A stretch of 64,000 bases of DNA from an uncultured Candidatus Saccharibacteria bacterium (lineage in GTDB: Bacteria > Patescibacteriota > Doudnabacteria > UBA920), in NCBI GenBank assembly GCA_964372905.1, contig CAYJQY010000005.1, positions 230 to 64,229 on the forward strand, given 5' to 3'. Positions 616 through 28,697 of this stretch are shown piece by piece. Positions within the stretch are counted from its first letter, which is position 1. Each line of letters opens with the position of its first letter. The notes beneath the pieces are model-generated. The model was not told the origin of the DNA. It made no database searches and was given only the letters and a program-made list of their open reading frames with translations. The position numbers and the translations under genes are program-made.

Positions 616-786
616 TTACTACCTGTTATTATAAATGTATAATGTCCCCATAAGGATCGGGGGGTCAATGAACCCCCCGACCATAGCCCCTAATCCAAAA
701 GGTAGAGGGGCACACAGCAACTGCTGTTACCGAAGTGAGAAGCCGGCTCGCGAATAGCGATAGATAGCCCGGCTTTTTTTATTTTT
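616..786 (+). ncRNA. candidate ~170-nt small RNA of unknown class, bounded by promoter and intrinsic terminator
   Basis: Lies downstream of a perfect -35/-10. Contains an 8-bp G6/C6 hairpin (657-680) and ends in a stem-loop agccggct…agcccggc followed by T7-A-T5 (741-786). No ORF longer than 17 aa. Confidence 0.35.
741..786 (+). terminator. rho-independent terminator (plus strand); its T-run overlaps the rpiB stop codon
   Basis: GC stem agccggct/agcccggc with a one-nt bulge, followed by ttttttt a ttttt. Confidence 0.5.
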
Positions 787-14822: not shown

Positions 14823-14989
14823 AATGGCACAGCGGTTTTATCAACATAAAATCTTTATGAACAAAATCTCCAATTTCGATAAAATCCGCGTCTTTACCCC
14901 GTTGATACTACTGTGGTAAAATGCCAATATAATTTCATTATTTAGGTGCCTAACCCTTGAGCAACTTTGCTCGGGGCATGGCCGAAAAA

Positions 14990-15031
14990 CCATCCAAGGT
15001 AGAGAACTCCTCGTCAGAGTTCCTTGGATGG
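14990..15031 (+). promoter_or_regulatory. perfect 10-bp-stem hairpin with nested 5-bp helix in the leader of a small plus-strand ORF
   Basis: ccatccaagg-tagag-aactc-ctcgtca-gagtt-ccttggatgg. A GNRA hairpin ttgggt-gcaa-acccaa follows at 15053-15068. Confidence 0.5.
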
Positions 15032-15136
15032 TCGTATCTCGAAAGGGGTATGTTGGGTGCAAACCCAAGCTCTGGCGGGGAGCTTTATGTTTTTTGCTTC
15101 CCCCCTCTTCCCGCCGAGCCCAAAGAAAGGAACTTT

Positions 15137-15259
15137 ATGAAAAACCTCGGCGCAGTGTTCACCAAGGCCAACCTGGGAAATGCATTAATTTTTATCTTAA
15201 GTATGGTCGCCGCCGGCATTGTTTACAATTGGTACATCACGGCATTCAACGTGAGATAA
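15137..15259 (+). CDS. small hydrophobic peptide (40 aa, one predicted TM helix)
   Basis: MKNLGAVFTKANLGNALIFILSMVAAGIVYNWYITAFNVR. An AGGA sits 7 nt upstream of the ATG; an intrinsic terminator follows 6 nt after the stop. Confidence 0.4.
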   Translation: MKNLGAVFTKANLGNALIFILSMVAAGIVYNWYITAFNVR

Positions 15260-15265
15260 CAAACA

Positions 15266-28668: not shown

Positions 28669-28697
28669 ATTATAGCTATTCGCTCTGCCTCTGTCAA
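28669..28697 (-). promoter_or_regulatory. putative tuf promoter (TTGACA-17-TATAAT) with ~215-nt structured leader
   Basis: Reverse strand reads cttgacagaggcagagcgaatagctataat. The leader contains the palindrome cttcgtacgaag (28471-28482) inside a longer imperfect inverted repeat. Confidence 0.45.

Follow-up and report, generated by a model that had tools for sequence, protein, structure and literature searches.

Genes and signals at the rpiB–rpe junction

The window, the whole 64,000-nt stretch of DNA analyzed here, derives from an uncultured member of the Patescibacteria (CPR) whose closest RpiB relatives in GTDB are Patescibacteria MAGs of no more than 63% identity. Runs ERR3478686, ERR4904390 and ERR4904391 supplied the reads from which the organism is assembled. 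Nearly all of its long open reading frames lie on the minus strand, referred to below as the gene strand. Among them are galT (1977–2996) and tpiA (1240–1932), both assigned from Pfam matches on identical contigs, then rpiB (779–1243; ribose-5-phosphate isomerase B, PF02502) and the 5' part of rpe (1–556; ribulose-phosphate 3-epimerase). The ATG of rpe is at 556–554 and the gene continues past the start of the window; on the identical contigs L081–83 it is complete, at 214 amino acids with a PF00834 match. Between rpiB and rpe lies an intergenic spacer of 222 nt (557–778). A small hairpin at 551–565, GGCCAUUGGAUGGCU on the plus strand and AGCCAUCCAAUGGCC on the minus strand, spans the rpe start codon. 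On the minus strand it could sequester the rpe AUG.

Two tandem promoter sequences were found on the plus strand of the spacer. P1 (581–609), described in the initial annotation of this DNA, matches TTGACA-17-TATAAT at all 12 positions, carries a TG one base 5' of the −10 hexamer (TGaTATAAT) and has an AT-rich tract upstream. It faces into the spacer on the strand opposite all neighboring genes, as had been stated, with a predicted start near 616. P2 (615–643), which the initial annotation overlooked, reads TTTACT-17-TATAAT (10/12, with a 17-nt spacer). Its predicted start, near 650, falls at the foot of the first hairpin (H1, below), 1–4 nt ahead of it. In sequence, both P1 and P2 are promoters of the sigma-70 type, that is, hexamers 16–18 nt apart with an optional TG at −15/−14.

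P1 had been described as the only textbook promoter in the window; a second 12/12 match to TTGACA-17-TATAAT is present at 28669–28697 on the minus strand. A further five sites differ from consensus at one position (8595, 14795, 27193, 41140 and 42588), all on the gene strand. Seven consensus promoters with at most one mismatch were thus observed in the window, against 0.24 expected from shuffled sequence, and P1 alone among them is opposite to the gene strand. Given this strong enrichment, with the other six sites all on the gene strand, near-consensus sigma-70 promoters appear to be used by this CPR organism. The P1 stretch also resembles Lactococcus phage intergenic sequences (82–87% identity over 38–45 nt); these matches are read as strong consensus promoters.

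Downstream of P2, the same hairpins were obtained in the MFE and centroid structures. The 5'-terminal hairpin H1 (654–682; GGAUCGGGGGGU / ACCCCCCGACC, loop CAAUGA) contains the G6:C6 core noted in the initial annotation and comprises nine consecutive pairs plus two more (−21.5 kcal/mol, z −4.3). H2 (686–711) pairs GCCCCU with AGGGGC around an inner CC/GG helix, and H3 (714–727) consists of ACAGC AACU GCUGU. An unpaired linker, UACCGAAGU (728–736), leads to an intrinsic terminator at 737–786 with a core stem of 742–747/767–773, an inner helix of 748–751/757–760 and a T7 run (774–780) followed by A and T5. The sequence has the form of a Rho-independent terminator, a GC stem (742–773) passing directly into T7, on the plus strand only. 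The rpiB TAA stop codon (781–779) lies opposite the last two T of this run and A781, so the reported overlap of terminator and stop codon was borne out. A purine tract, GAGAA (737–741), is able to pair with the terminator U run. A simple scanner overlooked this terminator because its loop limit was 8 nt, and a census of simple hairpins with T runs across the window proved too unspecific for use.

The segment as a whole is unusually stable. Region 606–786 folds at −65 kcal/mol compared with −41.9 ± 4.0 for shuffled sequences (z −5.8), and region 650–783 gave z −6.5; in both cases 0 of 200 shuffles were as good. The minus strand also folds well (z −4.35), with H1 at −22.9 kcal/mol there versus −21.5 on the plus strand. 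The window helices are purely Watson–Crick and hence fold equally well on either strand.

Such equal stability of every window helix fits a reading in which the spacer makes no functional RNA and is instead punctuation between operons, arising from a split of rpiB from rpe. A symmetric, AT-rich promoter region would drive rpe while firing divergently, and a bidirectional terminator would end rpiB and contain the spurious transcript. Three minus-strand promoter-like sites, each 9/12, do overlap P1 and P2 in the AT-rich part (668–600), and the GAGAA ahead of the terminator stem, with the U run behind it, gives a partial two-way symmetry. On the minus strand the tail after this stem is merely UUCUCACUU, and minus-strand hairpin tails elsewhere in the window are likewise weakly U-rich (GTTTGTTATC and TATGTATTAG, for example). 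In contrast, the three 9/12 sites occur at chance frequency, whereas the plus strand has by far the strongest promoter (12/12 with TG) and a perfect U run. This reading also fails to account for the three additional stable hairpins that separate the terminator from the promoter. Bacterial promoters that are symmetric and transcribe divergently are similarly AT-rich, with overlapping hexamers on both strands (here 581–643 on plus and 668–600 on minus); the spacer differs from them in that its plus-strand promoter is much stronger and in having a structured body and a dedicated terminator, neither of which a by-product would need. We regard this explanation as possible but rather unlikely, and the related loci described below bear on it from both sides.

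The rpiB–rpe junction in related genomes

Relatives of the locus were sought in GTDB with RpiB as query and, with RpiB, Rpe and the N-terminal part of Rpe, in a large protein collection. The GTDB search returned 80 loci, all at most 63% identical, none of which carried the RNA. Three contigs from other samples were 100% identical across the spacer; this degree of identity indicates the same population, and they are therefore uninformative for conservation. Four lineages only have an RpiB or Rpe 70–80% identical to that of the window, with none closer. P0241 is 82% identical over the N-terminal part and has no contig on record.

The gap between rpiB and rpe is below 60 nt in most Patescibacteria loci. 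In two of the four closest lineages there is no comparable spacer: the two genes overlap in L085–87 and are 13 nt apart in L088–89. As rpiB and rpe abut in most Patescibacteria relatives, including these two lineages, the window spacer counts as a lineage-specific insertion. Contig L101, also of Patescibacteria and with an Rpe 60% identical, has an AT-rich gap of 66 nt with no RNA-like unit. On the same contig (L101:2399–2934) rpiB appears as a 76-amino-acid fragment after a 305-nt gap. A full-length frame is seemingly present there in interrupted form, which would make it a pseudogene or an assembly frameshift.

Two relatives carry a unit of similar layout. In L084, whose RpiB is 77% identical by alignment and whose locus continues on L091, the strand opposite rpiB has an extended −10 (TGATAATAT), followed about 7 nt on by a hairpin (UCAAGGGGGGU/GCCUCCUUUGA) and then by a 10-pair hairpin with T6 at the rpiB stop. 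In L090 (Rpe 76% identical) a promoter-hairpin-terminator unit fills the 126-nt spacer. TTGACG-17-TATTAT, the sole promoter-like site there, lies on the opposite strand adjoining the rpe ATG; a 5'-end hairpin (GUCUAGGAGG/CCUACCUGGAC) and a 9-pair hairpin with a U-rich tail at the rpiB stop follow it. P2 is the promoter with which the extended −10 and 5' arm of L084 align, and the L090 promoter is the positional equivalent of P2.

In both relatives the folding energies favor the strand opposite the genes. The 5' hairpin is more stable on that strand in L084 (−16.3 vs −8.8 kcal/mol) and in L090 (−13.6 vs −10.5 kcal/mol), owing to G–U pairs, and the whole L084 RNA gave z −3.96 compared with −1.98. 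A by-product of a bidirectional promoter region leaves this G–U bias unexplained. It is also at odds with the L090 spacer, where a gene-strand promoter-like site is lacking and no U tract of any kind follows the terminator hairpin on the minus strand, and with the perfect plus-strand U run of the window, which recurs in L084. Yet the absence of sequence conservation between lineages, and of the spacer itself in two of the four closest, is what a by-product would predict. Taken together, the consistent signals and the strand evidence from L084 and L090 favor a small RNA unit on the plus strand.

What recurs is not the sequence. No significant similarity was detected among the window, L084 and L090 spacers; the segment from promoter to 5' arm is marginally similar between the window and L084, 14 of 400 shuffles doing equally well. 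MAFFT and RNAalifold applied to the three spacers yielded no shared or alignable consensus structure, and no covariance model was therefore built. Neither conserved sequence nor covarying pairs, which would mark a new conserved structured RNA family, were found, only identical copies from the same species. Conservation between relatives had been proposed in the initial annotation as a check on the RNA gene, and here the proposal fared badly: the flanking genes are kept while the sequence is not, relatives with RpiB 73–79% identical having either no spacer or a dissimilar one. Position, orientation and architecture do appear to recur across the three lineages. The three units may be homologous or could have independent origins.

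Other features of the junction were observed in these loci. The rpiB of L090 (L090:1–390) is only 39% identical to window rpiB (779–1243) and 77% identical to that of L092, while the adjacent rpe is 76% identical to that of the window; given this discrepancy, the rpiB|rpe junction is also a mosaic, recombination or replacement boundary in the clade. The contig ends that flank the spacer in L084 (4585–4623) and L091 (1–40), both from Logan (SRR22387938), are mutually reverse-complementary (TAGGACTTACGCG / CGCGTAAGTCCTA), which points to a long inverted repeat separating rpe from the RNA promoter. This repeat probably broke the assembly, and the spacer there is accordingly at least 240 nt long and incompletely known. 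In L053, a distant Parcubacteria MAG, a tRNA gene (L053:1206–1276, minus strand) lies on the opposite strand at the junction 3' of rpiB; ARAGORN identified it as tRNA-Asp with an unusual anticodon, ATC.

The coding potential of the spacer was greater than had been stated. Where the initial annotation gave no reading frame longer than 17 codons, a 40-codon ATG frame is present on the plus strand at 635–757, with an in-frame inner AUG at 668 that would give 29 codons and a stop inside the terminator; frames of 31, 33 and 44 codons lie on the minus strand. A small protein gene could therefore be envisaged, in which the purine-rich 5' arm (UAAGGA...GGGGGG) serves as ribosome-binding site for the 29-codon frame, or the 40-codon frame from 635 is used, with the hairpin gating access. 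In all three lineages the first 12 nt or so of the predicted transcript do contain an SD-like purine run (UAAGGA/G6, AAGGGGGG and UAGGAGG in the window, L084 and L090), and a stop codon within the terminator is frequent among small genes. The peptides encoded after this run are, however, unrelated: MNPPTIAPNPKGRGAHSNCCYRSEKPARE in the window and MHHASFDLVK, from a 10-codon UUG frame, in L084. In L090 none of AUG, GUG and UUG occurs at a usable distance, and the sole well-spaced UUG frame there crosses the terminator without a stop. Read from sequence, neither the L084 nor the L090 spacer holds a counterpart of the 635–757 frame. Spacing within the window is also poor, at just 3 nt from G6 to AUG and 11 nt from AAGGA to AUG. 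The window spacer frames matched nothing in Pfam or NCBIfam, and the peptide is neither hydrophobic nor otherwise like known small proteins. With poor spacing, no conserved frame and no family, a small protein gene in the spacer is unlikely, and we give this version of it very little credence.

Known RNA families and further copies

The window, a 281-nt region containing the candidate (at E up to 10) and the related loci were scanned by cmscan against Rfam 15 with gathering and E-value thresholds. Across the window only LOOT RNA and two tRNAs were found. On neither strand did the candidate reach the gathering threshold of a family. The 281-nt region gave scattered chance-level matches, the best of them to GP_knot1, whose gathering score of 67.7 bits compares with the 19.9 bits obtained; 6S, SRP and tmRNA models gave none at E up to 10, and no riboswitch family came near its gathering score. 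This agrees with the initial annotation, in which no match to SRP RNA, 6S RNA or tmRNA was seen by eye. The L084, L090 and L091 loci likewise matched no family, and ARAGORN, run on the related loci only, found no tmRNA.

6S RNA (RF00013 and relatives) was rejected: it gave no match at E up to 10, and in both the MFE and the centroid structure local hairpins simply follow one another. A fold of local hairpins only, lacking a stem that closes the 5' end on the 3' end, is not 6S-like, 6S RNA being a closed rod with a large central bubble. SRP RNA (RF00169/RF01854) and tmRNA were also rejected, as no Rfam match was obtained and length and fold are incompatible with either.

Further copies were sought at several scales. 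No paralogue of the RNA was detected within the window, and nhmmer and blastn found no homologue in 89 related loci. The pattern ATAAT-N7-TAAG-N4-5-GGGGGGT-N6-13-CCYCC recovered seven stretches from JGI metagenomes, four of them distinct; none had the architecture, and the number is chance-like. Viral contigs, phages and plasmids gave no match beyond the resemblance to the promoter. The candidate RNA belongs to no known or conserved RNA family.

CPR RNAs often diverge from family models. The spacer might accordingly hold an RNA of some known housekeeping or structured family (6S, SRP or an rpe riboswitch on the minus strand) so divergent that the models missed it, or the remnant of a small mobile element equipped with a promoter and terminator of its own. 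As an insertion, the element is patchily distributed, and the opposite-strand tRNA gene at the same junction in L053 indicates that this site accepts small RNA genes. Chance-level cmscan scores in the window, the lack of any family in L084, L090 and L091 and the missing 6S-type closing stem all speak against a divergent family member. A mobile remnant is countered by the lack of a second copy in the window or of any phage, plasmid or viral match outside the promoter, and no terminal repeats were seen when the spacer ends were read by eye. Either origin seems highly improbable to us.

The LOOT RNA found in the same window (RF03000; 14947–15068, plus strand, 86.9 bits) offers a point of comparison. 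Like the candidate, it lies on the plus strand opposite its flanking genes, with a promoter-like site with TG at 14893–14922 and a terminator-like hairpin at 15067–15085. This organism thus places other small RNA genes in the same manner. The two differ in that LOOT scores 86.9 bits on its own model, while the 616–786 RNA gave no LOOT match at E up to 10. Shortly downstream on the LOOT strand (14893–15260), an ATG near 15138 preceded by AAAGGAA seems by eye to open a hydrophobic frame of about 40 codons (MKNLGAVFTKANLGNALIFILSMVAAGIVYNWYITAFNVR), and LOOT may serve a small membrane protein gene as its leader or partner.

A candidate RNA within a carbon-metabolism operon

In our best reading, to which we assign a probability of roughly 45%, a small non-coding RNA is encoded in the spacer by an independent gene opposite the galT-tpiA-rpiB-rpe operon. 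The RNA would be about 130–170 nt long (~165 nt from P1, ~130 nt from P2), fast-evolving and lineage-specific. The dedicated small RNA gene proposed in the initial annotation is in this respect plausible but unproven: the unit is coherent and its layout is present in two lineages, whereas conservation of its sequence failed.

On this small RNA reading, transcription would start at the tandem sigma-70 promoters P1 (~616) and P2 (~650) and end at the intrinsic terminator, the U run finishing on the rpiB stop codon. The predicted body consists of a 5'-end hairpin, with a purine-rich, SD-like 5' arm and a C-rich 3' arm, then two hairpins, the linker and the terminator. Its 5'-end hairpin would most likely protect the RNA from 5'-end-dependent decay.

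The position of the unit suggests what it might act on. Among the relatives examined, most have rpiB and rpe adjoining or overlapping, as do two of the four closest lineages, and the pair is presumably transcribed together. In the window, no good U tract follows the terminator hairpin on the operon strand, and operon transcripts therefore probably cross the spacer. In L090 the unit fills the spacer and no gene-strand promoter-like site is present, so rpe would be reached by read-through and the RNA would be antisense to the operon transcript. More generally, a unit inside the operon would be antisense to any rpiB–rpe read-through transcript, and we infer such an antisense relationship here. 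The small RNA would be perfectly complementary to the rpiB–rpe intercistronic RNA. Its likeliest action would be in cis, by antisense pairing or by interference from convergent transcription, and rpe and the downstream transketolase gene (tkt) may in this way be uncoupled from, or tuned relative to, tpiA and rpiB. Should rpe possess a promoter of its own among the three 9/12 minus-strand sites, read-through and antisense action would be unnecessary. A trans-acting role is possible and received no support: when RNAduplex was applied to 58 translation-initiation regions of the window, the candidate did not outscore shuffled RNA.

The closest analogue is GadY of Escherichia coli, a small RNA transcribed from its own promoter opposite gadX-gadW, inside their spacer, so that it is complementary over its full length to the bicistronic mRNA produced by read-through. 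Enterobacteria share GadY as a conserved RNA. The candidate likewise has its own promoter on the opposite strand inside the spacer of two co-oriented genes, and a GadY-like cis-antisense geometry fits the position of the unit between rpiB and rpe, the lack of a good minus-strand U tract and the lack of a gene-strand promoter in L090. The two RNAs have no sequence or structural relation, and the candidate, predicted from sequence, is not conserved even at 73–79% RpiB identity. A second likeness is to RsaE/RoxS, the C-rich, Rho-independent-terminated small RNAs of Firmicutes: a length of ~100–170 nt, a sigma-70-type promoter of its own, several hairpins, C-rich stretches and, ahead of the terminator, a short linker that stays unpaired. 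The C-rich motifs of RsaE/RoxS are conserved and lie in unpaired regions. Here, in contrast, the C runs are locked in G:C helices, and no Rfam model matches.

A bolder proposal covers all three lineages. A clade of Patescibacteria may carry at rpiB|rpe a rapidly evolving, opposite-strand RNA cassette, made up of a promoter, a 5' hairpin with SD- and anti-SD-like arms and a terminator, that acts within the operon as an antisense regulator and frees rpe and tkt from their coupling to tpiA and rpiB. Selection would then act on the architecture and not on the sequence. We consider this doubtful.

A mere by-product of a bidirectional promoter region would be an ordinary finding, and a real promoter- and terminator-bounded small or antisense RNA would be of a kind familiar in bacteria. 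A full-text literature search found nothing relevant on regulatory RNAs of CPR/Patescibacteria. These RNAs are apparently little studied in organisms whose genomes are tiny and whose known regulators are few. If the small RNA reading is true, an RNA amid a core carbon-metabolism operon would provide a concrete candidate, one recurring in position and architecture but not in sequence. An antisense cassette at this site, if true, would rank among the earliest proposals of a regulatory small RNA in CPR bacteria.
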